NCBI GenBank assembly: GCA_963674745.2
Contig: CAXXDV010000001.1
Span: forward strand, 2,048,001 to 2,112,000
Length of the DNA stretch: 64,000 nucleotides
Origin: Desulfosudaceae bacterium
Lineage (GTDB): Bacteria > Desulfobacterota > Desulfobacteria > Desulfobacterales > Desulfosudaceae
Direction of reading: 5' to 3'
Shown here: piece after piece, positions 52,005 to 64,000 of the stretch
How the letters are laid out: each line of letters opens with the position of its first letter
How positions within the stretch are numbered: position 1 is the first letter of the stretch
The notes under the pieces: model-generated
What the model was told of the DNA's origin: nothing
What the model saw: only the letters and a program-made list of their open reading frames with translations
The model's database searches: none
Made by a program: the position numbers and the translations under genes

Positions 52005-52141
52005 GAGCTGGTTCAAGAGGCATCCAACGTCTGAAGCCAATGGCAGCCAGGGCTTCCACCGACTTCCTTAAAGATGTTTGTTGTTCAATTCTCGTGGTTG
52101 TACAACAAAGCCCGCTCGGGCTGTTTTTTTTGGCTGACTTG

Positions 52142-52498
52142 TTAGCCCCTGTTTTTTCCAGAGGGGGCTACGGATTTTCGTAAAACACTAATACAGAAAT
52201 TATTAAGGCTGTCTCCGGACTGTAATGCCTTTATTGCTAAAGCCTTGTGAAGATCACTTCCCGTACGCAATTGAAACTTGCCAGAATATCGTTTATCGCT
52301 CGTGGAGGGTGGTAAAGGCCGGCCGTCTTTTTTATAAGTGACGATCCATTCATCAACTATACGGCAGAGTTGACGATAAACTTTTTCTTCGTTGTCTCCG
52401 TGGCAACACTTACCGATCCATCCCGGCACAGAACCGACATAGCATTTATCTTCATCTGACCACTCAACAATTTTCAAATAACGATCTCTATCTTTCAT
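52142..52498 (-). CDS. hicB: HicB family antitoxin (cassette)
   Basis: VEWSDED.CYVG..P, YSGKF.LR...LH..L RHH tail. Confidence 0.9.
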   Translation of the reverse strand: MKDRDRYLKIVEWSDEDKCYVGSVPGWIGKCCHGDNEEKVYRQLCRIVDEWIVTYKKDGRPLPPSTSDKRYSGKFQLRTGSDLHKALAIKALQSGDSLNNFCISVLRKSVAPSGKNRG

Positions 52499-52689
52499 TA
52501 TTTGGCCTCCTCAATCTTCTGCTTGACAATTTTTTCCTGATAAGGCTTTGCATCATCACCAAGTTGACCTGAGACTGTGACAGCAACGCCTTTTTCATGT
52601 AAGAAATTTTGATGGCTACCTTTTCCGCCCCGATTAACAAAACCGGCATTCTCAAGGTCTTTGATTAGTTGACGAAGTTTTCTTGGCAT
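52498..52689 (-). CDS. hicA: HicA family toxin (cassette)
   Basis: LE.AGF...GKGSH..F.H. Confidence 0.9.
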   Translation of the reverse strand: MPRKLRQLIKDLENAGFVNRGGKGSHQNFLHEKGVAVTVSGQLGDDAKPYQEKIVKQKIEEAK

Positions 52690-52694
52690 GATTT

Positions 52695-52723
52695 ATGGTA
52701 CTGCTTTGGTACCACACTGTCAA
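52695..52723 (-). promoter_or_regulatory. hicAB promoter (probably leaderless)
   Basis: TTGACA-17 nt-TACCAT, ATG 5 nt later; TGGTACCA palindrome in the spacer. Confidence 0.7.
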
Positions 52724-52737
52724 GCAATTTGACTTGT

Positions 52738-53215
52738 TTATACGGTTTCCCCTATTACCTTATTCATCTTTATACATTCAAGTTGAGTCCCATCAGGCAA
52801 CTCATGAAAATCTGTTCCGTTTTCAACATAACCATGGCGTATGTAAAAGTCCGACGCATTGATTGTAGAACAGAGATGCAGTTGATGAATATTTTTTTCC
52901 TAAAGAGATCGCTTTGAGTTTAAATAAAATTTTTCTGCCTATCCCTATCCCTTTTGAATTTGGGTGTACATAAATCGCACTTATTTCTTTATTCTTTATG
53001 TCAAGAATACCAAACCCTGACAAATTGACTTCTTGTTCCGCAACGATAATGACTTTTTCTTGTATAGCACTCTCGTAAATTTCAGGAAGAAGAATATTTG
53101 TCCATTTATCTATGCTTTCCGGGCTGTAATAGTCCTTGCACAACCATCGAATGGAGGCTTTGTGGCATTTTGATATTTCTTCTAAATCATATGTTGTCGC
53201 CAGTCGTATCTGCAT
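52738..53215 (-). pseudogene. GNAT acetyltransferase cassette gene, frameshifted at A7 run (52892-52898)
   Basis: IYVHP..KGIGIGRKI; removing one A continues ...GKNIHQLHLCSTINASDFYIRHGY...MNKVIGETV*. Confidence 0.8.
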
Positions 53216-53346
53216 TTTTTTTACGTATAACGTCTTCAGCCAAAGGGCGCCAGGGCTTCCACTAACTTGCCTAAAATTAATTTATGTTCAATCCCCATGG
53301 TTGTTCGAAACCCGAGTGCCCTGGCTGTCCACTTGAGCTTCTTGGT

Positions 53347-54056
53347 GTGTGCCGGGCACGGCACATGTTCTTAAAAGTGAGCCAAGGCTATCATATATTT
53401 GATAATTTTGGCAAGTCTTAGACCCAGCCTGATGGAGGCGAAGGGTGTAGCGGTAGTGCAACGGGGTACCGGTGACGGTGCTTCGGGAGGAAGCCGCCCT
53501 GCTGCGGCAGGGTACCGCGAAGGTACGGGATGACGCACAGGAATCGAGTATAAGGCGCGCACGCCGGGACGAGTCTGCACAACAAGGCAAAGTCCTCTAT
53601 CCATCTTAAGGCGTGTCCGTAAACTCGGCATTTACGTACCGAAAGACACGTGCTTACCCCGGGAGATCTCTCCTGTGCCGTACAACGGCTGAGGGTCGGG
53701 TAACCGGCCCTGACCGCAGGGGAGAAGTCAGCAGAAGGCATAGTAGCCGGCGGAAACGAGCCGGGCCTCCCTTAAGCGGGAGAAGTATACCCGGAGGACT
53801 CACCCCGGTGAAGGCCGGAACGGTGCCCGGACCGAATGGCACGGGTAAATGGTGGTGGCAAGTAAGGGAGTATCTCTTACGGGGATAATGCGGCAGCTGC
53901 CGAAATTCACGTAGCGAGCTTTCTCTGAAAACCCGGTGGAACTGGTGGGATAACTCACAGCCGGTCTCATCAGTACCAGCCGAACCGCCTTGGTACGTGA
54001 TCCGTATGCCAGGTGGTGTGGGAGGGGGTAGCCGTGAGGCTACTCCCTATCCCAAT
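53347..54056 (+). mobile_element. ORF-less group IIC-attC intron (710 nt) inserted inverted in an attC
   Basis: 5' GTGTG; CTTACCCCGGGAGATCT and GAGAAGTCAGCAGAAGGCATAGTA landmarks; domain V GAACCGCC..GTACG..CCGTATGCC.GGTGGTGT (CGC triad) at 53982-54020; domain VI ending CCTATCCCAAT. Removing it restores CTTGGT|TATAAG. Confidence 0.9.
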
Positions 54057-54065
54057 TATAAGGAT

Positions 54066-54512
54066 TTAATATGGGTTCTTATATGGTCCCTCCCAGATTC
54101 CCGACAAAACGATCGTTGCTGTAGAAGCACTACGAGTTCTGAAAGTTGCATATCCAGTCTCTCCAGGCTCCAATTTGGGATATATCAGTCGTGTCTTTTC
54201 CCCAACTACTTGTCCATCTTGATCAAGCTCGACGAAGAATACTTCACTTGGGAGTGGTAACTTGCCATTGTATGAAACTCGGCAAGTAAGCCCAGAGATA
54301 GGGTGACAATTATTGATGGTGAATATCTTCTGCAAGTCTCCAGTCAGTTTCATAACGGGAACGCACCAGCCATCCTCGTTGGGGACCATTCCGTACTTAC
54401 TGCAATCTTGGGGATCATAGACTCCTGAGCAGCTTAATACAGCAGAGAAAAGGAGTGCTGAAGCAACCCTGAAAATCAACCTCAAATATTTTATTTCTTG
54501 TCTTTGTTGCAT
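54066..54512 (-). CDS. Hypothetical lipoprotein (cassette)
   Basis: Lipobox VLSC; fills the cassette. Confidence 0.75.
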   Translation of the reverse strand: MQQRQEIKYLRLIFRVASALLFSAVLSCSGVYDPQDCSKYGMVPNEDGWCVPVMKLTGDLQKIFTINNCHPISGLTCRVSYNGKLPLPSEVFFVELDQDGQVVGEKTRLIYPKLEPGETGYATFRTRSASTATIVLSGIWEGPYKNPY

Positions 54513-54729
54513 ACCTTATAACGTCTCAAGCCAATGGAAACCAGGGCTTCCACCAGCTTGGTTAAAGATTATGGTTGTTCAGTTCCCCTAATTTTTCAAA
54601 ACCAGAGTGCCCTGGTTGTCCACTTGAGCTTGATTGTTGAACGAAGCCGCTACGCGGCGGATTAATAAAAAACAAGGTATACTCCAATACGTGCTCAATT
54701 ACGGGCACCCCCAATAAAAGGAGTATACC

Positions 54730-55634
54730 ATGAACGATTCGGAAGTAAAACGTTTCAACCGGCTTTATGAGCGGCACCTGGAGTTGCTCAAGCTTCAGGG
54801 GATGAGTCCGAGGACCATTGATCTCTATGCCCGTTCAGTCCGCCGCATTCGTAACCATTTTGATTGTTGTCCCGACCATTTACGTCCGGAACAATTGGAA
54901 GGTTATTTCTCTCAGCTGGTGGATAGCCATTCCTGGAGCACGGTCAGGGTTGACCGTAACGGCTTGCAGTTCTTCTGGCGGTATGTGCTCGGAAAGGACT
55001 GGGAATGGATCAAGATCGTCAAACCGCCGAAAGTCAAAACCATACCGGACATTCTTACCGTTTCCGAAGTTGAACGGATCATCGGCAAAACCAAGAAATT
55101 GCGTTACCGGGTATTTCTGCTGACAACCTATTCCATGGGATTGCGTCTGGAAGAGACGTTGTCCCTTCAGATCGGGGACATTGATGCTGAACGCAAAAAG
55201 GTCCATATCCGCCGGGGTAAAGGTCATAAGGACCGAATGCTGCCATTGCCGGATCTTACGTTGGAGGGCCTGCGGGAGCTTTGGCGTAAGCATCGTCATC
55301 CTAATTTGTTATTCCCCAATTGCAAGGGTTCTTTAGAAACCATCCGGGCGGCCACCAACTTTATGGATAAAGGCGGCTGTCAGAGGGCCATGAAAGTGGT
55401 CGTCGCCGAATGCGGCATTAAAAAAAAGTATCCATTCACTCCCTGCGTCACAGTTTTGCCACCCACCTGCTTGAACGCGGCTTAAGCCTCCGTCACATCC
55501 AGGCCCTGCTTGGCCATGCCAGTCCCTCCACAACAGCACGTTATACGCATCTAAGCGATATAACGGAGCAGGACAGCCTGACTGTCTTAAATGAGTTGAT
55601 AAATACAATCCATGTTGATTTTAGAAAGGTATGA
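54730..55634 (+). CDS. Tyrosine recombinase (~300 aa) requiring a -1 frameshift at 55422-55428
   Basis: Frame 0 has YSMGLR and GKGHKDR and stops at 55485. The -1 frame continues [17 protein letters not shown]...IQALLGH.S..TT.RYTH and ends at TGA 55634, overlapping the transposase ATG. Confidence 0.88.
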
Positions 55635-56686
55635 TTATGGAACTGGCATCAATTATTGATCAGTACGCTGACAGGTTTATGGAAAAGCACGGCCAAAAAG
55701 CCTTGCCGGGGCATCTTAAAGCCTTGCGTGCCATACGCAGGTGCCGCACTCCTGCCTCCGGAGAATTTCACGTTCAGTGCCCCGGCTGCCAACATGGACA
55801 ATGGAAACCAATGTCCTGCGGGCACCGGAGCTGCCCCAAATGCCAGAATCATGAGGCCAGTCAGTGGATCGACCGGCAGCAGGAGAAACTGCTTCCGGTG
55901 CTTTACTTTATGGCGACGTTTACGCTGCCGTTTGAACTCCGTCCGCTGGCCTGGAACAATCAGCGGGATGTATATTCAATCTTCTTTTCCTGCGTGTCCG
56001 AAACACTCAAGGATTTTGGCTTAAACCCGAAGCAAATGGGCGCAGAAATCGGTTTGACCATGGTTCTGCATACGAACACCCGAAGTCTGGATTATCATCC
56101 TCATATCCATGTGGTGGTGCCCGGCGGCGGGATTGATAAGCGCCGGCGACAATGGAAAAAGAAAAAAGGAAAATATCTGTTTAATGAGTTTAACCTGGCC
56201 ACGGTCTTTCGTGCCCGTTTTCTGGCCGCTTTAAGAAAAGCCGGCCTTTATGTGCCTAAAAATACACCTGCAAAATGGGTCGTGGATTGTGAAAAGGTCG
56301 GTAACGGGCTCCCGGTCATAAAGTACCTGTCCCGGTACTTATACCGGGGTGTAATCAGTGAAAAGAATATTGTGGCCAATGAAAATGGCCGGGTCACCTT
56401 CAGGTACACTGAAAGCGGCACCGGCCATACCCGTTATCGTACGCTTGACGGAGAAGATTTTCTCCAGCTCATTCTGCAGCATGTCCTGCCCAAGGGCTTC
56501 CGCAGGGTGCGCGATTACGGGTTTCTTCATGGCAACGCCAAAAAGACGCTGCAACTGGTGCAATTGATCCTGCATGTCCGGCTTGGAATAAAAACCCAAC
56601 GCCCGAGACCTGCTGTAAAGTGCCCCCGTTGCCACATCCCGATGGTCATCAAAGGGTTCCGTTACGCGGCCTGGAAGCCGGGATAA
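55631..56686 (+). CDS. IS91-family (HUH/Y2) transposase with Zn-binding N-terminus
   Basis: CRT..G...C..C...[39 protein letters not shown]. Confidence 0.95.
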
Positions 56687-56880
56687 AACGCTGACCCGGT
56701 TATGACCCGGCACAACAAAAAACAGGAGGCAATCACACCCATGAACAAAATTGTCTTTTTAAAACCTGCCTTCAGGTTAAGGGATCCCTGCGTCCTGCAA
56801 AAAAAGCACTTTCCAGGTTCACGCCTTTTGCCCTCTATCCCAAATTAAATATTTTCTTATAGTGAAAGTTCAGCGGGCTT

Positions 56881-56941
56881 GTTCAACCCCGGATAAGATC
56901 GTGGCTCGTTACCTCGCACGATCTATCCTTGTTCGTTATGA
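56881..56941 (+). other. Short (61-bp) attC site in + orientation belonging to the element
   Basis: R'' GTTCAAC; arms GGATA[A]GATCGTG[G]C / GCACGATCTATCC with two unpaired bases on the R'' arm; R' GTTATGA. Confidence 0.8.
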
Positions 56942-57069
56942 TTACCCCTTTCGCTACACAGAAAAAACCATGCGATATCAAAAAATTACACGCTTACAAA
57001 ATTTTGTTTAAAAGAATAAATTAAAAAGATTTTGTTATTGGAACAAAATTGCATTATCAGCGAATTTTA

Positions 57070-57285
57070 CTAAATGTTTTCCCAAATGTCATATCCAATA
57101 AAAATTATTATTAGAACACAAAACAAAAGAATTATAATTTTTCTTCTTCGTAGACATTTCGGGCATCGATAAACATATTTATATCTTTCTGTCAGCGACC
57201 AATGATTAAGCACAAGCTCAACATCTTTTTCAGATACTTCAATTCCGCAGGAGGCACATTTCATGTCATTTTTTGCTTTAATCAT
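57070..57285 (-). CDS. Small CxxC..CxxC protein with C-terminal TM (cassette, copy A)
   Basis: CASC...CPKC plus hydrophobic tail; duplicate at 59561. Confidence 0.7.
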   Translation of the reverse strand: MIKAKNDMKCASCGIEVSEKDVELVLNHWSLTERYKYVYRCPKCLRRRKIIILLFCVLIIIFIGYDIWENI

Positions 57286-57416
57286 AACGTCTTCAGCCAA
57301 AGGGCGCCAGGGCTTCCTCTGACTGACTTAAAGTCGGTTGATGTTCAATTTCCCGAGGATGTTCAAAACCCGAGTGCCCTGGCGATCCTTTTGCGCTGAA
57401 TTGTTGAGTGTAAATT

Positions 57417-57782
57417 TTATTTGTTTGGTTCTATAAAATCATCAACTTCAATATGAATATCCCGGCAACCAAGGAATTCCTCATCTACTTCGTATATATT
57501 TAATATACCACCATATTCAGCAGTGAGTTCACCATCCCAAAAGATAGCTTGAATTTCGATTAACACGTGATCTCCGACATGGATTGTTTCTTTTTCCTGA
57601 TTAACTATTACATCTTCGTTATGATAATCATTATCTTCTACAGCATAGTATATACTTACTTCTCTGTCTGTATCATTGAAAACTCTTACGCAAAAATTTT
57701 GCGGGTCATCAAAATCGAACGGATCAGTGCAGCCAAACATTATCAAAAAAATAACCGGTACTAATTTAATGAAAATATTCAC
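57417..57782 (-). CDS. Hypothetical acidic lipoprotein (cassette)
   Basis: Lipobox MFGC; fills the cassette. Confidence 0.75.
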   Translation of the reverse strand: MNIFIKLVPVIFLIMFGCTDPFDFDDPQNFCVRVFNDTDREVSIYYAVEDNDYHNEDVIVNQEKETIHVGDHVLIEIQAIFWDGELTAEYGGILNIYEVDEEFLGCRDIHIEVDDFIEPNK

Positions 57783-57929
57783 TCTACACTCAACGTCTCC
57801 AGCCAGAGGGCGCCAGGGATTCCACTGACTGTCTTAAAGTTGGTGAATGTTAAATCCCCCCGGTTGTCCAACAAAGCCCGCCCTGGCGGTCCTGCTGGGC
57901 TGGATTGTTATGATTTAGGATATTATTTT

Positions 57930-58274
57930 TCAATCCACCCATTCAACTTTTACTTTAGTTCCTCTAAGACCTTCAAAAAACCCGCCGACTAAGGCCCATG
58001 CGGTTTTTTGGTTCCCTTGTCTTGTTTTAACTTTTATCCAAAAAATTCGTTGTCTCCAAACAAGTTTAAAAAAAAATGGATTCATTTTTAATCTTGGATA
58101 TTTGAAGTCTATTAAAGCATATCCATTATTACTTGCCCAGATTTCGAGTATTTTTTTACCCTTTTTCGAGTTATAATAATGTTCAAATATAAACAATATA
58201 AGGAGAATAGATATCGGAACATTACATAATGATAGTAATATTAAAAGATCATTGTTCATATGCAGAAAAATCAT
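57930..58274 (-). CDS. Hypothetical membrane-anchored protein (cassette)
   Basis: Fills the cassette; the track's upstream extension lies in attC. Confidence 0.7.
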   Translation of the reverse strand: MIFLHMNNDLLILLSLCNVPISILLILFIFEHYYNSKKGKKILEIWASNNGYALIDFKYPRLKMNPFFFKLVWRQRIFWIKVKTRQGNQKTAWALVGGFFEGLRGTKVKVEWVD

Positions 58275-58390
58275 AACGGCGGCAGCCAAAGCAGCCAGGG
58301 CTTCCACTGCCTTTATTAAAGTTGTTTGCTGCTCAATTCCCCCGGCATGTTCAAAAACCGAATGCCCTGGCTGTCATTTGGGCTGCTTGG

Positions 58391-58677
58391 TTAAGTGCCC
58401 GCATTATTCAGAAAGCCTTTAACGACAGCATGGGCAAATCAATTAAAATGATTTTTTTCTTTTTACGCCTTGTCCATCATGAACTTATGAAAACGGGTAG
58501 GTCTCTTTTCATCCGGACAAATAAAGGCGCAAAATCAAACAGTCCCGCCAGATCAAAATACAGCTTATCTTTACTGATTGAAAATATCAATCTGGTGACA
58601 ATTTCCATAGTGGCAACGAAGATCATTTTTCGTCAAAATTCTTTTTTTATTTTTTCCCGTACAGATTAAGTGCACTT
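58391..58677 (-). other. Cassette without a substantial ORF (diverged second copy from 63834)
   Basis: Bounded by GTTAAGTGC/GCACTTAAC; only a ~49-codon minus-strand ORF found. Confidence 0.75.
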
Positions 58678-58798
58678 AACGTCCGCCACCACCGGCGAGC
58701 AGGGTTTGCGGACTTCCTTAAAGTGAGTTTAACACCAAACTATGCCAGGACAAAAGCAGCCCGCCCCTGCGAGTCCGGGTGAGTGGCATTGTTATCTT

Positions 58799-59287
58799 TC
58801 AGTTTTTTAATATTTTTGATTCTATTAATTCATTTTTTAAAATCATAAAAATTCCTGCTACTACCGTAAAACCATGTGCAAATGAATTACTCCAATAGAA
58901 ACCTCCTCCCGAGCGAATTGGTAAAAGGAATAAATCTCTGATTAAGGAGGACGTTCCACTTGTGAAAAAGTATATGCCTAAAAGAATAAGCCAAAAGGAT
59001 AGATTAGAGTAATTGGGGTCGCTTTCATCTGTCTTGGGTGTTACTTTAGAATCTCCGGAAATAAAATTTGATATTTTTTCGGCCTTCGAAATTAAGAGGA
59101 TTGCAACAATAATATAAAATATCGGGAGAAAAGAAGCCCAAATATTATATAGCACAGGATTCTTGATAAACTTTTCCTGATTGATAGCAAATGAAGAGAT
59201 TAATCCAGAAAATGCATATGGTATTTGAACTAAAAGATAAAGGCCGTAAATACGTGTTGCAATTTCAATGGCTTTTTTTGTGCTCAT
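58799..59287 (-). CDS. Hypothetical 4-TM protein (cassette)
   Basis: AAGGA RBS, starts MSTKKA. Confidence 0.75.
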   Translation of the reverse strand: MSTKKAIEIATRIYGLYLLVQIPYAFSGLISSFAINQEKFIKNPVLYNIWASFLPIFYIIVAILLISKAEKISNFISGDSKVTPKTDESDPNYSNLSFWLILLGIYFFTSGTSSLIRDLFLLPIRSGGGFYWSNSFAHGFTVVAGIFMILKNELIESKILKN

Positions 59288-59560
59288 AGAGTTCCTTGAA
59301 GAAAGATAACGGCGGCCGCCAATGGGAGCCAGGGCTTCCACTGACTTGCCTTAAAATTGGTTGCTATTCAACTTCCCCCGAATGTTCAAACCCCGGGGTG
59401 CCCTGGCTATCCTTTGCGCGGCCTTGTTATGATTACCCCTTTCGCTACACAGAAAAAACCATGCGATATCAAAAAATTACACGCTTACAAAATTTTGTTT
59501 AAAAGAATAAATTAAAAAGATTTTGTTATTGGAACAAAATTGCATTATCAGTGAATTTTA

Positions 59561-59776
59561 CTAAATGTTTTCCCAAATGTCATATCCAATAAAAATTATT
59601 ATTAGAACACAAAACAAAAGAATTATAATTTTTCTTCTTCGTAGACATTTCGGGCATCGATAAACATATTTATATCTTTCTGTCAGCGACCAATGATTAA
59701 GCACAAGCTCAACATCTTTTTCAGATACTTCAATTCCGCAGGAGGCACATTTCATGTCATTTTTTGCTTTAATCAT
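59561..59776 (-). CDS. Small CxxC..CxxC protein with C-terminal TM (cassette, copy B)
   Basis: Protein identical to 57070-57285. Confidence 0.7.
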   Translation of the reverse strand: MIKAKNDMKCASCGIEVSEKDVELVLNHWSLTERYKYVYRCPKCLRRRKIIILLFCVLIIIFIGYDIWENI

Positions 59777-59828
59777 AACGGCGGCAGCCAAAGGGCGCCA
59801 GGGCCTTCTCTGACAGCCTTTAAGAAGG

Positions 59829-60281
59829 TTACTGTTCAGTTTTCTTCGAATGTTCCAAAACCCGAGTGCCCTGGCGATCCTCTTGCGCTGCCTGGTTAGT
59901 TTTCTTTTTATTTCTTATGGTTAGAATCATTTTATATAAATCCTCCATCTGCTCACCTGCCCATGGATACATACGATAATTTTTTGATCTGGGTAATATG
60001 CTATTGGCTATGTCGAAGCAATTGCAACTATCGATGTCAATTTGAAAATTCATTATGACCATTGATTTGGTTTTATTATCATAAATTTTGAGATCGGCCC
60101 ATGAACGGGGCCATTCACTGTTTCTCTCTACATAGAATGTTGTTTGTTTAATAACATCGGCAGTTTTATATTCTGGGTCGACGTTGAAAATTATTGCAGA
60201 AAAATGGCCAAACAAATAGGCAACAAAGATTGATAAAATCCATAAAACAAAAATCAAAATTTTTTTCTTTTTGCCTGTCAT
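59829..60281 (-). CDS. Hypothetical membrane-anchored protein (cassette); stop lies deep inside attC
   Basis: MTGKKKK plus TM segment. Confidence 0.7.
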   Translation of the reverse strand: MTGKKKKILIFVLWILSIFVAYLFGHFSAIIFNVDPEYKTADVIKQTTFYVERNSEWPRSWADLKIYDNKTKSMVIMNFQIDIDSCNCFDIANSILPRSKNYRMYPWAGEQMEDLYKMILTIRNKKKTNQAAQEDRQGTRVLEHSKKTEQ

Positions 60282-60407
60282 TTCGAGCTTGCTCTCATGA
60301 AAACTAACGTCTTCAGCCAAAGGGCGCCAGGGCTGTCTCTGACTGACTTAAAGTCTGTTGATGTTCAATTCAGCACGGCTGTTCAAAAGCCGAATGCCCT
60401 GGCGATC

Positions 60408-60896
60408 CTATTGCGCTGAATTGTTCGGTGCCTTAAGGGTTTCTATAGATTCCAGCAATTCTTTTATAAATTGATCAAAATTATTCTTGTTTGAGCCGTT
60501 ATTACCGATATTAAAAGCTATTAAACCATTATCCATTTTGAATTGATAGAATTCTATTTTCCCCCAATTGATAATTGCAAGGATTGCGCATAGTAGAGGT
60601 ATAAATAAGAAGAACATATGTGCTAAAAAGGGGAGCCCTCCGCCTTCAAAATAAAAAATAAGTTCGGCAAACAAAGCAATTGGTAAAGACCCAACAAATA
60701 TGCCTGCCGAATATTTAAAGGTTTCAGTTCTGATCCAAACCTTATCATATATGGGGTCAATCTTCTTGAGGTCTAATTTGGCTTCAGATTTTTCACCCCA
60801 AGATCGTTTGCTCTTAAAAATTAGAAAATCATCGTTTATTTCAAAGTCTCTAACAGTTCCATTGAAACGATGTGAGTATTTTTTGATTTTGTTCAT
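60408..60896 (-). CDS. Hypothetical 2-TM protein (cassette)
   Basis: Fills the cassette; ends ...PNNSAQ in attC. Confidence 0.72.
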   Translation of the reverse strand: MNKIKKYSHRFNGTVRDFEINDDFLIFKSKRSWGEKSEAKLDLKKIDPIYDKVWIRTETFKYSAGIFVGSLPIALFAELIFYFEGGGLPFLAHMFFLFIPLLCAILAIINWGKIEFYQFKMDNGLIAFNIGNNGSNKNNFDQFIKELLESIETLKAPNNSAQ

Positions 60897-61039
60897 AATA
60901 ATTGTGCACCGAACGTCCGCCACCACCGGCGAGCAGGGTTTGCGGACTTTTTAAGGGTTAGTTCAACACCACACTATGCTAAAAATAAGGCAGGCCGCCC
61001 CTGCGAGTCTGTGTGAGTGGCGTTGTTATGTGCCTCTAA

Positions 61040-61378
61040 TCATTCGTATTTCTTATATGCACGCCAATGTGTATCACAATTCAAGCATTTGCTATGGAAA
61101 ACGCCTAAATATCTCCAACTAAAACCGAACAATTCTCCACAGACAGGACAAGTACTGTATTTACTTGCAAGGCTGGAAATGAACAGCGCTACAAGATATG
61201 GCAAAAAAAATATAGCCATGATTATTCCAAAGTAGAATCCATTGAAAAGGATATCGCTAAATAATGCCACAATAATAAAATACGGGAATGTGCAACCAGC
61301 AAGAATCCAGTTGGTTTTTCTCGCAAGCCTAATTTTTCGTAGTTCCTTTGCAATTTTTCTATTGTCTTCTTCACCCAT
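61040..61378 (-). CDS. Hypothetical 2-TM protein with CxxC..CxxC (cassette)
   Basis: CPVCG...CLNC. Confidence 0.72.
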   Translation of the reverse strand: MGEEDNRKIAKELRKIRLARKTNWILAGCTFPYFIIVALFSDILFNGFYFGIIMAIFFLPYLVALFISSLASKYSTCPVCGELFGFSWRYLGVFHSKCLNCDTHWRAYKKYE

Positions 61379-61527
61379 TATTCTTTGGCACATAACGTCG
61401 GCCGCCAATGGGAGCCAGGGCTTCCACTTACTTGCCTTAAAGGTTATTAAAGTTCGTTTTTCCCCGAGTTTTCAAAAACCGAATGCCCTGGCTATCCTTT
61501 GCGCGGCCTGGTTAAGTGTCTTAAATA

Positions 61528-61848
61528 TTAATACAATTCGAATAAAACCAAACTGACAATAAATACGTGAACTATCCCAACGCCGAATACAGAATAAAGG
61601 CTGATCTTAAAATTATGTTGGCAAAGCATTCCACATAAAAAATAACAAAATGAAGAGACCAACCAAAAGGCCCAGAAAAATATTATATTATACAGGCGAT
61701 CTAAGGTTACGCCACGAGCACCATTTTCATAAAGTCCATAGTGTATGAGAAATTGTATACCTCCGACAATAATGCCTGAAGCCAACAAAAATAAACTGCA
61801 GGTGATTAATGCTCTTTTACAATATAGGGTTATTTTATCTCCAGCCAT
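61528..61848 (-). CDS. Hypothetical 3-TM protein (cassette)
   Basis: Fills the cassette. Confidence 0.68.
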   Translation of the reverse strand: MAGDKITLYCKRALITCSLFLLASGIIVGGIQFLIHYGLYENGARGVTLDRLYNIIFFWAFWLVSSFCYFLCGMLCQHNFKISLYSVFGVGIVHVFIVSLVLFELY

Positions 61849-61979
61849 TATTTTACACTTAACGCTCTGGTTCACCGGGCGGGCGGCGAACCACGAAAAC
61901 CGCCGAAAGGCGAAAAAGGTTGAAAAATAGCACCACTCAAAAGTGCGGCGCTGTAGCCCGATCCGTGTGCAACCAGTTG

Positions 61980-62426
61980 TTATCTTTTAATTTTATATGT
62001 TTGTAAAACATTTTTACATTCTAAAATTAAACCTGACAAATAGCTTTGGTCGATCTCGAATATAAATTCATGGTTTTGCAAAAGATGATCAGGCGTAAGG
62101 CTAACTTTCATTTCCATTTGACCAAGCTTATTTGCTTCTATACTCATGTACAATTCAGGTTCCATACATGAAAGCTCGGCTTTACCTGAAAGAGTTTGAT
62201 AAAGTTTTTCTGTAGATTCAAGCAATTGGTTTATTTCGGACAAATGGAGTATGTTGCCGGACACCCAAACATAAGATTGTTTTGACTCACATTTAGCCGT
62301 AATATTTACCCAATTCCCATCCCAAAAATCTTTTGAATCTGGAAACTGTCGTCTGTGTATCCATATTTCCAATCCAGCTATTTTAATGTCTGGTTTTTCT
62401 AAATCTTTTGGGAAATCTTTCATCAT
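61980..62426 (-). CDS. WapI-like immunity protein (cassette)
   Basis: D.WDGNW...EPEL...F.IDQSYL pattern recalled from WapI-like proteins; not verified by search. Confidence 0.6.
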   Translation of the reverse strand: MMKDFPKDLEKPDIKIAGLEIWIHRRQFPDSKDFWDGNWVNITAKCESKQSYVWVSGNILHLSEINQLLESTEKLYQTLSGKAELSCMEPELYMSIEANKLGQMEMKVSLTPDHLLQNHEFIFEIDQSYLSGLILECKNVLQTYKIKR

Positions 62427-62552
62427 ATTCTTAAAGATAACGTCCGCCACCACCGGCGCGCAGGGTTTGCGGACTTCGCTAAAGTAAGTTAAACACCAAA
62501 TTACGCCAAAACAAAGGCCGCCCGCCCCTGCGAGTCCGGGTGAGTGGCGTTG

Positions 62553-62843
62553 TTATATTCCAGTTTTTATTTTTATGAAAATAATTGCTGCCAGCAGCCC
62601 TATCATAGCACCAAAAATTATCGACAAATACCATTTTGAAATATTCGTGAATTTTATAATTAGTGCCGGAAAGATCGAAATCAGGATTATTTTGAATAGA
62701 CCTGAAATTAAATAAGGCCAATCCATAAAACCGTAATGCTTGAGCATAGTCAAAAAGAAAATGGAAAATAAACAAATTGTGCTTGCAAAATAAGCAAGTA
62801 ATGCTTGTTTTGAATGAGCTAAAAATTTGCTTTGATCATCCAT
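62553..62843 (-). CDS. Hypothetical 3-TM protein (cassette)
   Basis: Fills the cassette. Confidence 0.68.
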   Translation of the reverse strand: MDDQSKFLAHSKQALLAYFASTICLFSIFFLTMLKHYGFMDWPYLISGLFKIILISIFPALIIKFTNISKWYLSIIFGAMIGLLAAIIFIKIKTGI

Positions 62844-62988
62844 AAATTTTCTCTTGTGGAATATAACGTCCACGGTGTGAGGCCGCAAGGGGAACAGGCC
62901 ACCCGCAGAAAACTCGTTTATAAAAATAATTGGTAAGAGCCAAAACCGACCGCCCCTTGCGGTCCTTTACCAACGTGTTGTTATGCAA

Positions 62989-63279
62989 CTATCTATAATT
63001 TCGAATTTTTTTGCGTTGCGCTGTATATTTCCACCATTCCTTTGGTTCTCCACCATTCATAAAATCCGTTATAGAAAGAAAAACATCAATCACGCAGGGG
63101 TCATGCTTCTGACCAGTAACTCTACATAGATCATCATACATCGTATAAGCAGATTTACCCTTCAATTTTTCGGGCTTGTCTATATTTATTCGTTTTAAAT
63201 CCTTGGCGATAGCTTTTCCTATGTTTGGAAGATCTGTTAACTCGATGACATTGTCGCGTTTTACTTTGTTTGGATTCAT
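62989..63279 (-). CDS. Helix-hairpin-helix protein (Cdd1/mitomycin-resistance-like; cassette)
   Basis: LTDLPNIGKAIA.DL, HDPCVIDVF, WWK. Confidence 0.8.
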   Translation of the reverse strand: MNPNKVKRDNVIELTDLPNIGKAIAKDLKRINIDKPEKLKGKSAYTMYDDLCRVTGQKHDPCVIDVFLSITDFMNGGEPKEWWKYTAQRKKIRNYR

Positions 63280-63413
63280 ATGAAAAGTTGCATAACGCCC
63301 GCCACCACCGGCGAGCAGGGTTTGCGGACTTCTCTAAAGTGAGTTCAACTCCAAATTACGCCACAACAAAAGCCGCGCGTCCCTGCGAGTCCGTGTGGGT
63401 GGCGTTGTTATCT

Positions 63414-63653
63414 CTAAATGTTATGCTTTTTTTTAACTTCTGAGATTCTATCCCAAACTGCTTTTGAAACTGAATCTTGGGATACTTGATCGAAAATGTT
63501 ATTTAGTACCCGTTTTTCATCATCATCAATAATATTATCGGCCATTGCTAATCCAAGCAGATAATTGATTTCTCCAATATCCAGCGTACCATCATCAGTG
63601 AAACATTTAATAGAGTCGAGGGCAATTCTTAAATGACTTTCAAGTGGTGACAT
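63414..63653 (-). CDS. Small hypothetical protein with TerB/EF-hand-like acidic motifs (cassette)
   Basis: DDGTLDIGE, ADNIIDDDEK; start MSPLES after AGAAAGG. Confidence 0.65.
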   Translation of the reverse strand: MSPLESHLRIALDSIKCFTDDGTLDIGEINYLLGLAMADNIIDDDEKRVLNNIFDQVSQDSVSKAVWDRISEVKKKHNI

Positions 63654-64000
63654 TTGATTGTACCTTTCTCTCCAAGAGGGTTGTCGGTTAAAGCGCACTT
63701 AATATTATAAGAGAGATAACGTCTGCAGCCAAAGTAGCCAGGGCTTCCAGTGACTGACTTTAAGGTGGTTGATGTTCAATTTCCCCCGAATGTTCAAAAA
63801 CCGAATGCCCTGGCTATCATTTGGGCTGCTTGGTTAAGTGCCCGCATTATTCAGAAAGACTTTAACGACAGCATGGGCAAATAAAATAAAATGATATTTT
63901 TCTTTTTACGCCTTGTCCATCATGAACTTATGAATACGGGTAGGTCTCTTTTCATCCGGACAAATAAAGCCGCATTATCATTTGGCCGCGCCAGTTCGAA

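Follow-up and report, generated by a model that had tools for sequence, protein, structure and literature searches.

Members of the IS91 family of insertion sequences (IS), as one account describes them, leave no target duplication and insert next to a CTTG, GTTC or GTCC tetranucleotide at oriIS, the end that lies downstream of the genes and contains one or two palindromes (PMC13181058). The other end, terIS, is located upstream of the genes, and in it a single subterminal palindrome adjoins the tetranucleotide that is cleaved (CTCG in IS91, GTTC in the others); the same account credits orf121, the upstream gene of IS91, with sharpening terIS cleavage and damping transposition (PMC13181058). 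In the literature searched, only two types of mobile element are presented as specific to attC: the IS1111-attC group of the IS110 family and the group IIC-attC introns, both reported to home to attC in the direction opposite to the cassettes (PMC9229058; PMC3001079). We analyzed a 64,000-nucleotide stretch of the genome of a Desulfosudaceae bacterium (assembly GCA_963674745.2, contig CAXXDV010000001.1, positions 2,048,001 to 2,112,000 of the forward strand), named the window. Its segment 54637–56935 is an autonomous IS91-family insertion sequence, from the branch that carries a tyrosine-recombinase gene upstream of the transposase gene, and it sits in an integron array at the R'' end of a resident attC site. 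Integron arrays are the main system for storing and exchanging adaptive and resistance genes, and the element family occurs in several phyla and already resides in a class 1 resistance integron on a conjugative Escherichia coli plasmid.

ISfinder reportedly lists IS91-family members with an upstream "phage integrase" gene, for example ISShvi3, and to our knowledge the role of the recombinase in such members is regarded as unknown. These members have the same two-gene layout as the element described here. IS91-like elements, including ISShvi3, occur in Shewanella integron arrays, and ISShvi3 itself lies in the variable region of an integron, "adjacent to an attC site"; the relevant passages of that study state that no IS interrupting attC sites was detected, and they draw no target rule (PMC9229058). 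We found no description of IS91-family elements targeting attC in the literature searched, and the annotation of close relatives on plasmids reads "IS91 family transposase" or "site-specific integrase", with no named IS. Homing to attC suggests a concrete function, accessible to experiment, for the recombinase genes carried by the IS91 family.

Insertion at one nucleotide of attC

The element is 2,299 bp long (+ strand) and runs from TTGAAC to TTGTTCG. A search of the whole assembly found four copies that share these limits and are 97–100% identical, the other three being C1:1738331-1740637 (−), C1:2281096-2283434 (−), and C3:2332130-2334469 (+). In the window copy, the left junction falls at 54636|54637 (...GATTG|TTGAACGAAGCCGC) and the right junction at 56935|56936 (TTGTTCG|TTATGATT), with TTATGATTACCC directly 3' of the element. 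An initial annotation of the window had described a 2.3-kb unit with a recombinase, an HUH transposase, and a terminal hairpin, which the sequence, the domains, and the four copies bear out; its end at 56941 took in six bases of the flank. Read in the orientation of the element, a different attC stands before each copy, its last base being G (..GATTG, ..GCGTTG, and twice ..GAATGG), and the four right flanks all begin with TTA and are unrelated to one another beyond that. With four different attCs and four different right flanks, the copies are thus independent insertions at one attC nucleotide. It could be argued that there is no targeting, and that one insertion was spread by cassette duplication or that the association with attC reflects tolerance of insertions; indeed, cassette arrays tolerate insertions and one neighboring cassette is duplicated. 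This explanation is barely credible: not only do the attCs and right flanks of the four copies all differ, but the duplicated cassette copy is free of the element, insertions in unrelated taxa and in a class 1 integron repeat this exact position and orientation, and tolerance alone would not pin the position to one base. Relative to the direction of the replication fork, as judged by GC skew, the four copies split 1:3, and no lagging-strand rule is visible at this number.

The attC occupied in the window (54517–54636, − strand) is about 120 nt long, belongs to a repeat family, and has R' at its low end (TATAA|CG on the + strand) and R'' at its high end, where it finishes with ...GAGCTTGATTG, the last base, G 54636, being the left crossover base. 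Its fold leaves two more bases unpaired on the 3' arm of the + strand, and the other attCs folded show such an excess on the + strand of the element too, which fits that strand being the attC bottom strand. Three genes of the genome score above the cut-off of the integron-integrase model TIGR02249: C1:2117407-2118342 (+), C3:2348261-2349205 (+), and C3:27977-28915 (−). The first of them lies 5.4 kb past the right edge of the window, on the + strand, and the cassette open reading frames (ORFs) of the window are all on the − strand; in total, two of the three intI genes are located to the right of copy-bearing arrays, on the strand of the element, with the cassette ORFs on the other strand. The array of the window therefore reads from right to left, and the occupied end of attC is R''. 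The insertion point lies between the stop codon of a cassette and the attC of that cassette, and the C3 copy has the same layout, with attC ends on the + strand between the element and intI. A relative on an E. coli IncC plasmid, with a recombinase 55% and a transposase 43% identical, occupies attC(aadA1) of a class 1 integron, past the aadA1 stop codon and ahead of qacEdelta1. On its right it is flanked by the aadA1 end in reverse complement and on its left by the other 52 nt of attC(aadA1), ending ..GAATTG|TTGAAC, and intI1 is on the strand of the element. Together, the three intI genes, the direction of the cassette ORFs, and the attC(aadA1) relative identify the occupied end as R'' and the element as antiparallel to the cassettes, in agreement with the initial annotation. 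To judge by all these flanks, the element homes to one nucleotide, the AAC/GTT of the R'' (inverse core) box, and its insertion evidently leaves attC and the R' crossover point intact. This position keeps the cassette mobilizable along with the element, which can thus ride cassettes.

The same target was found in relatives. At least 7,991 of 8,000 scored candidates in the database match the transposase at E < 1e-10, and the best 120 matches are 72–100% identical and mostly located on contigs of 1.1–4.5 kb. Scanning of one genome per species confirmed 109 relatives, of which 80 loci were kept; they span Desulfobacterota, Gammaproteobacteria, a Cyanobium, an actinobacterial bin, and others. Motif searches of these loci recovered 44 left ends and 59 right ends, with 36 loci yielding both, the missing ends being attributable to contig-end truncation or divergence, and the element measures 2,283–2,428 bp in 34 of the 36 two-ended loci. 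Among 151 genomes sampled from the host order, matches at E < 1e-60 occur in 22, and roughly half of these are close relatives. A left flank of 60 nt or more was available in 43 cases. In 25 of them it finishes with an AAC...GTT hairpin whose single, unbranched stem has at least 16 bp; of these hairpins, 24 are attC-like (49–122 nt), and one is the end of another element. The metric is crude, since 15% of control sites pass it (103 of 700 GTT sites taken elsewhere in these loci, neighboring attCs being among them) and short or branched attCs, such as those of L041 and L098, are missed. For the 24 sites of attC type, we looked for the longest open frame up to 900 nt away; it is antiparallel in every evaluable flank (15/15 right and 13/13 left), and the flanking frames often end or start 2–40 nt from the site. 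The target consensus, nT(T/G)G|TTAKRY, corresponds to the GTTRRRY core with neighboring bases: among 45 distinct left flanks, the successive positions are T in 43, T or G in 41, and G in 42, and among 54 distinct right flanks the positions that follow TT, itself imposed by the search pattern, are A in 42, K in 50, R in 46, and Y in 38. Repeated independent insertion at one attC position and in one orientation is thus observed in unrelated hosts, as is characteristic of attC-specific elements. A copy on a Photobacterium plasmid has no obvious attC at its left flank.

Folded ends and the two genes of the element

The left end (54637–54662, +) is composed of TTGAAC followed by a GCCGC-TAC-GCGGC palindrome. 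The right end consists, in order, of GTTCAAC (56881–56887), CCC, GGATAAGATCGTG (56891–56903), CACGATCTATCC (56917–56928), and TTGTTCG. GTTCAAC, which fits RYYYAAC and forms an R''-like box, closes a subterminal inverted repeat (56871–56887, +; AGCGGGCTT-GTTCAAC), and the left TTGAACGAAGCCGCT and the right AGCGGGCTTGTTCAAC are imperfect inverted repeats. The terminal hairpin (56891–56928, +) has a 12-bp stem with one bulged A on its 5' arm; it is followed by the tail and right crossover (56929–56937, +), made up of TTGTTCG and the step from G 56935 to TT 56936–56937. Because G-T-T stands at both junctions, neither the cut register, that is, the exact cut position within these three bases, nor the acting enzyme can be read from the sequence alone, which fits a 3-bp duplication and a shared crossover core equally. 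Relatives begin with G|TTG(A/G)ACGAAGCCGC-loop-GCGGC and finish with CGGGCTTGT(T/C)CAAC-N-GGATAAGATCGTGG...CACGATCTATCC-TT(A/G)TTCG|TT, the final four bases of the element being TTCG in 48 of 59. The conserved GTT start and terminal fold, and the location at attC ends, are as the initial annotation had anticipated for homologues.

Comparison of the terminal stem across relatives, in an alignment of 55 rows of which one (L004) is mis-specified, reveals a conserved and covarying fold: 97.4% of 648 cells are paired, against 91.7% in shuffles, none of 500 of which reaches the observed value, and pairing falls to 25–51% when the partners are slid. Five of the 12 pairs are changed on both sides, for example C-G in 27 rows and U-A in 22. 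As single-stranded DNA, the hairpin has a predicted energy of −11.9 kcal/mol (z −2.5). The heptamer preceding the stem and the left end also change together, concordantly in 32 of 36 loci (GTTCAAC with TTGAAC in 25, GTCCAAC with TTGGAC in 7), the others being three C/A combinations and one of another kind. Non-Watson-Crick cells are mostly C.A on the + strand, equivalent to G.T on the bottom strand (10 versus 3 in the stem and 3 versus 0 in the heptamers); this bias, in small numbers of related sequences, is only a hint that the bottom strand may be the folding strand. When joined, the right and left ends form a 61-nt attC-like site (GTTCAAC, bulged stem, G|TTGAAC), which, judged by inspection and folding, looks like an attC (57–141 nt), and the top strand of the modeled junction folds at −19.5 kcal/mol, a value reached by none of 200 shuffles. 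In a Methyloprofundus chromosome (L074:1-5256), three elements of two subtypes stand head to tail, joined as ..CCTTGTTCG|TTGGAC.., which indicates that a resident right end is itself a target, equivalent to the R'' end of attC. The two upstream elements of this array belong to the other hairpin subtype (GGTTCAGATTGTGG..), also present in G059 and G078, and the middle element has a broken transposase frame.

The initial annotation had assigned the short hairpin to the element and had described a second copy of the neighboring cassette, and both claims hold. The cassette next to the element (56936–57290, −; its ORF 57070–57291 ends 135 nt from the element) recurs at 59427–59781; with the G of G|TT included, 56935–57290 matches 59426–59781 with a single mismatch in 355 nt. 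The second copy abuts a long attC and lacks the short hairpin, which thus belongs to the element. With G|TT crossovers, a folded imperfect hairpin, RYYYAAC and GTTRRRY boxes, and a bulged base, the element shares features with integron cassettes, and it might be a true cassette, whose terminal hairpin the host IntI reads as an attC and moves, its own enzymes only copying it or serving other ends. The joined ends do have the parts that define an attC (RYYYAAC, a stem bulged on the '' arm, and GTTRRRY, in 61 nt), the genome has three IntI genes, and two of the four copies are in arrays next to intI. IntI, though, would insert at R' and in the cassette direction, and it is disfavored because every scored insertion has the position and orientation that it avoids, R'' and antiparallel (4/4 in this genome, the class 1 case, and, by ORF direction, 15/15 and 13/13). 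In addition, the bulged base is dispensable, being absent from 5 of 54 relatives, copies L002 and L003 are far from any IntI gene, and some targets are not attC. We consider this explanation very improbable, and the label of integron cassette given in the initial annotation is abandoned; the ends fit the IS91 ori/ter plan, with a small palindrome and then GTTC on the bottom strand, upstream of the genes, and the recombinase is devoid of the IntI insert.

The transposase gene (55631–56686, +) encodes a Y2 HUH transposase of 351 residues with an N-terminal zinc-binding domain. It matches Zn_Tnp_IS91 (PF14319, 1.4e-27) and Y2_Tnp (PF04986, 4.4e-48) and, over its full length, the NCBIfam model NF033538 with 389 bits for a cut-off of 125, which makes it an equivalog of the IS91 family. 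Its homologues begin at MELAS, corresponding to position 55637 in the window copy. The upstream gene (54730–55634, +) is that of a tyrosine recombinase and is split between two frames: frame 0 (54730–55485) encodes 251 residues with Phage_int_SAM_4 and Phage_integrase domains and without the catalytic His and Tyr, and a −1 shift at A_AAA_AAG yields a product of 233 + 68 = 301 residues in which the catalytic half is restored (...RYTHL). This slippery heptamer (55422–55428, +) stands in the zero frame (ATT AAA AAA AAG) within an A8 run (55420–55427) and is present in all four genome copies, where the frame-0 stop is 55 nt past the A8 run and the catalytic half is in the −1 frame. The TGA of the −1 frame (55632–55634) overlaps the transposase start (ATGA, 55631–55634). 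The heptamer A_AAA_AAG is known from IS3-family elements and dnaX, and its conservation here places a tyrosine recombinase among the genes of mobile elements that are under recoding control. Enough upstream sequence was available for 59 relatives, of which the motifs classified 29 and left 30 unclassified: 24 need a −1 shift at the same run (A8G or A9), one needs a +1 shift, and four are unsplit, including a homologue (L038:3099-4001) of 301 residues, equal to the 233 + 68 codons of the window copy. A homopolymer sequencing error is unlikely because these relatives come from independent assemblies. No stimulatory RNA structure stands out 3' of the slippery site (fold z-score −0.13), which leaves transcriptional slippage of the RNA polymerase on the A8 run as an alternative. 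Differences among the four copies are patchy and mostly three bases apart, at third codon positions, a pattern from which both genes of the element appear clearly to be under purifying selection, with recombination among variants.

IntI also has a Phage_int_SAM_4 N-domain. The recombinase of the element is devoid of approximately 26 residues at the position of the extra domain of IntI, and its alignment with the IntI of the host genome, with 31% identity, contains 46 gap columns, mostly at this domain. In hidden Markov model searches, it scores 176 bits with archaeal XerA, 161 with XerD, 146 with XerC, and 141 with the IntI model, all below the respective cut-offs; the IntI match (TIGR02249, cut-off 265) is in two stretches and leaves the protein outside IntI membership. 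Similarly, its best relatives of solved structure are Xer proteins, and the match to IntI4 (PDB 2a3v) is split in two pieces. A 20-row tree gathers the element recombinases in one group (SH-aLRT, a likelihood-ratio branch support, of 94) and the IntI proteins in another (99). The portions of a preprint that deal with IS91-element recombinases place them in an "Integron-like" subgroup as the closest IntI homologues without its insert (10.1101/542381). The placement of the recombinase as sister of IntI was considered and was not retained, the branching between groups being open in our tree, which neither confirms nor contradicts the grouping of the preprint.

The conserved non-coding tail downstream of the transposase gene (56687–56870, +) carries a Shine-Dalgarno sequence with a short ORF, a small hairpin, and the motif ..AAATATTTTCTTATA.., which reads AAAAAGATATTTTCTTATATA in relatives and is strongly conserved; the tail itself is kept across the right ends of the relatives examined. 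One possibility is that it holds an origin or nick site. The short ORF, with the Shine-Dalgarno sequence ahead of it and the small hairpin after it, is very short (ATGAAATAG in many relatives) and has 48 codons here. The Rfam search of the window gave no match in this tail.

Proposed pathway of integration

We tentatively favor a pathway in which the transposase makes a bottom-strand circle and the recombinase of the element integrates its folded joint by single-strand exchange at AA|C of R''. Next to the observed identity of the element, position and orientation of its target, conserved folded ends, tandem targeting, and selection on both genes, we infer all of the chemistry. The division of labor suggested in the initial annotation, with single-stranded DNA made by the HUH enzyme and integrated by the recombinase, would fit all the observations. 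The Y2 transposase would nick and peel off the bottom strand as a single-stranded circle, as in IS91; the joined ends of the circle would form a hairpin of the same polarity as a folded attC bottom strand; and the Xer/IntI-like recombinase would carry out a one-strand exchange, at AA|C, between this hairpin and a resident attC on its R'' side. The attC partner could be the top strand or a double-stranded R''-L'' half-site, and replication would complete the insertion. The full-length recombinase would be made solely after the −1 frameshift, and the frame-0 product, a DNA-binding part with no active site, could act as a brake. A functional analogy is offered by CTX-phi and other Xer-exploiting elements, in which an HUH protein makes single-stranded DNA, a folded mimic of a recombination site arises, Xer exchanges one strand, and replication resolves the product. 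These elements use the host XerCD and dif, in contrast to the present element, which encodes its own recombinase and has attC as target. The IS1111-attC elements and group IIC-attC introns, which home to attC opposite to the cassettes as the element does, differ from it in chemistry, with a DEDD transposase in the former and a ribozyme and reverse transcriptase in the latter, against an HUH enzyme and a tyrosine recombinase here.

A fully integron-like, two-enzyme version of this pathway, in which an IS-borne recombinase that is the nearest relative of IntI joins the folded attC-like joint of an HUH-made single-stranded DNA circle to the "wrong" (top-strand, R'') side of attC, is possible, though somewhat doubtful. 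If true, it would make the element a third and mechanistically new kind of attC parasite and a living model of integron origin, IntI and the cassette/attC principle having been domesticated from such an element, or the reverse, and R'' exchange, as between the two copies of the neighboring cassette, would reshuffle ORFs relative to attCs. The element would offer a natural system in which HUH and tyrosine-recombinase chemistry meet on folded single-stranded DNA.

Several observations weigh against the favored pathway. By hidden Markov model score, the recombinase is no nearer to IntI than to XerA or XerD, and the branching among the three groups of the 20-row tree is unresolved. On the bottom strand of the modeled junction, local hairpins are preferred, at −21.6 kcal/mol, and, as noted above, 5 of 54 distinct relatives do without the bulged A. 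As for the targets, 18 of the 43 left flanks are below the hairpin threshold and those of several relatives are not attC, including two GC-rich hairpins resembling repetitive extragenic palindromes and ending ..CCCGA|TT; a distant recombinase-bearing clade (G049, two copies, transposase 37% identical) has ends of the same architecture in ordinary non-attC DNA. Logan contigs of four runs, compared with positions 54000–57600, contain no joint between 56935 and 54637, rare forms being beyond what contigs can reveal. Finally, the ends of the element also fit a scheme in which the transposase acts alone: on the bottom strand the left one presents a palindrome-TTC-GTTC as in IS801 and IS1294, and the top-strand flank, NTTG^, and terminus, TTCG^, are similar to the CTTG target and the CTCG cleavage site of IS91. 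The same Logan contigs include none that skips the element, that is, no empty site, and the joints listed have sides of approximately 22 nt in attC repeats.

In this transposase-only scheme, the enzyme would cut at a short motif by the foot of a hairpin, in its own ends and in attC alike, and insert the bottom-strand circle, the recombinase taking the place of orf121 as an accessory factor for terminus recognition, regulation, or multimer resolution. We regard it as a serious possibility, if short of probable. The element shows no target duplication beyond the GTT present at both junctions, be it duplicated or shared, and, like IS91, it has ends unlike each other, with a small palindrome by GTTC upstream of the genes and a larger palindrome downstream. 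The bottom strand of its left end, GCCGC-GTA-GCGGC-TTC-GTTC-AA, and the downstream 12-bp hairpin correspond to the terIS/oriIS plan, in architecture only, and the left tetranucleotide, GTTC or, in the TTGGAC variants, GTCC, is among those of IS801, IS1294, and IS1294b. An accessory gene whose stop overlaps the transposase start is arranged as orf121 is in IS91, the recombinase standing in its place. Recombinase-free members of the IS91 family are described as transposing with TnpA alone, and the rule of a T at position 2 of the flanking tetranucleotide, found here in 43 of 45 cases together with a G at position 4 in 42 of 45, is given for IS91 as well (PMC13181058). The Replitron paper, in the part that bears on this point, presents the reading of a hairpin and a nearby cut site as common among HUH enzymes.

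The element differs from IS91 in several respects: it carries a tyrosine recombinase, the gene of which has a frameshift site; its target is a structured site, the R'' of attC, as opposed to a bare CTTG or GTTC tetranucleotide; and its left end and subterminal right end are covarying inverted repeats. Its insertion orientation is strict, and its motif nTTG|TTA differs from the CTTG and GTTC of the tested IS91 members, although NTTG^ resembles CTTG; on the strand used by IS91, its target tetranucleotide (RYYY or YYAA) varies much more than the IS91 one. Action of the transposase alone also leaves unexplained why a selected, expression-regulated recombinase of the IntI-like group accompanies exactly those IS91 relatives that have a GTT crossover and attC targets. 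Some explanation other than those considered is unlikely.

Surrounding array and remnants

The array spans window positions 52023–63841 and beyond. The two copies of the duplicated 355-nt cassette body have different attCs (54517–54636 and 59305–59426). On the R'' side, they match from exactly the G of G|TT onward, and the match ends shortly after AAC|G of the upstream R'. Hence, an exchange has taken place at R''. The array also contains the 5' part of a group II intron (53348–53816, +; RF02001 at 121 bits, RF01998 at 42–50 bits), the sole Rfam match in the window. It starts with ..CTTGG|TGTGTGCC, next to an attC (53226–53347) of which it uses the end and the strand that the IS91-type element uses, and looks like a group IIC-attC intron. 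As no reverse-transcriptase ORF follows, the intron is short and without an ORF or has been truncated. A 285-nt repeat with 88% identity (58273–58557 and 63716–64000) comprises an attC and adjacent sequence. Further afield in the genome, many more attC clusters are found, for instance at C1:1.48-1.51 Mb, C1:2.27-2.29 Mb, and C3:1.82-1.83 Mb, some without a nearby intI.

A lone 29-nt remnant of the right end is found at C3:1912977-1913005 (L009), with half of the hairpin and TTGTTCG|TTATGC and the rest of the element absent. Among the relatives, the 5-kb spacing of the ends in L124 had suggested passenger genes, a possibility rejected because it stems from an IS nested in the tail: at L124:4372-6884 (G054), this IS, with minus-strand ORFs of 551 and 286 residues, lies between the transposase gene and the terminal hairpin. 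In L035, L079, and L045, the final 7–19 nt of the right end are tandemly repeated, for example ..ACATATCCTTATTCGTT twice in L079, and such repeats may be footprints of imprecise termination or re-initiation.

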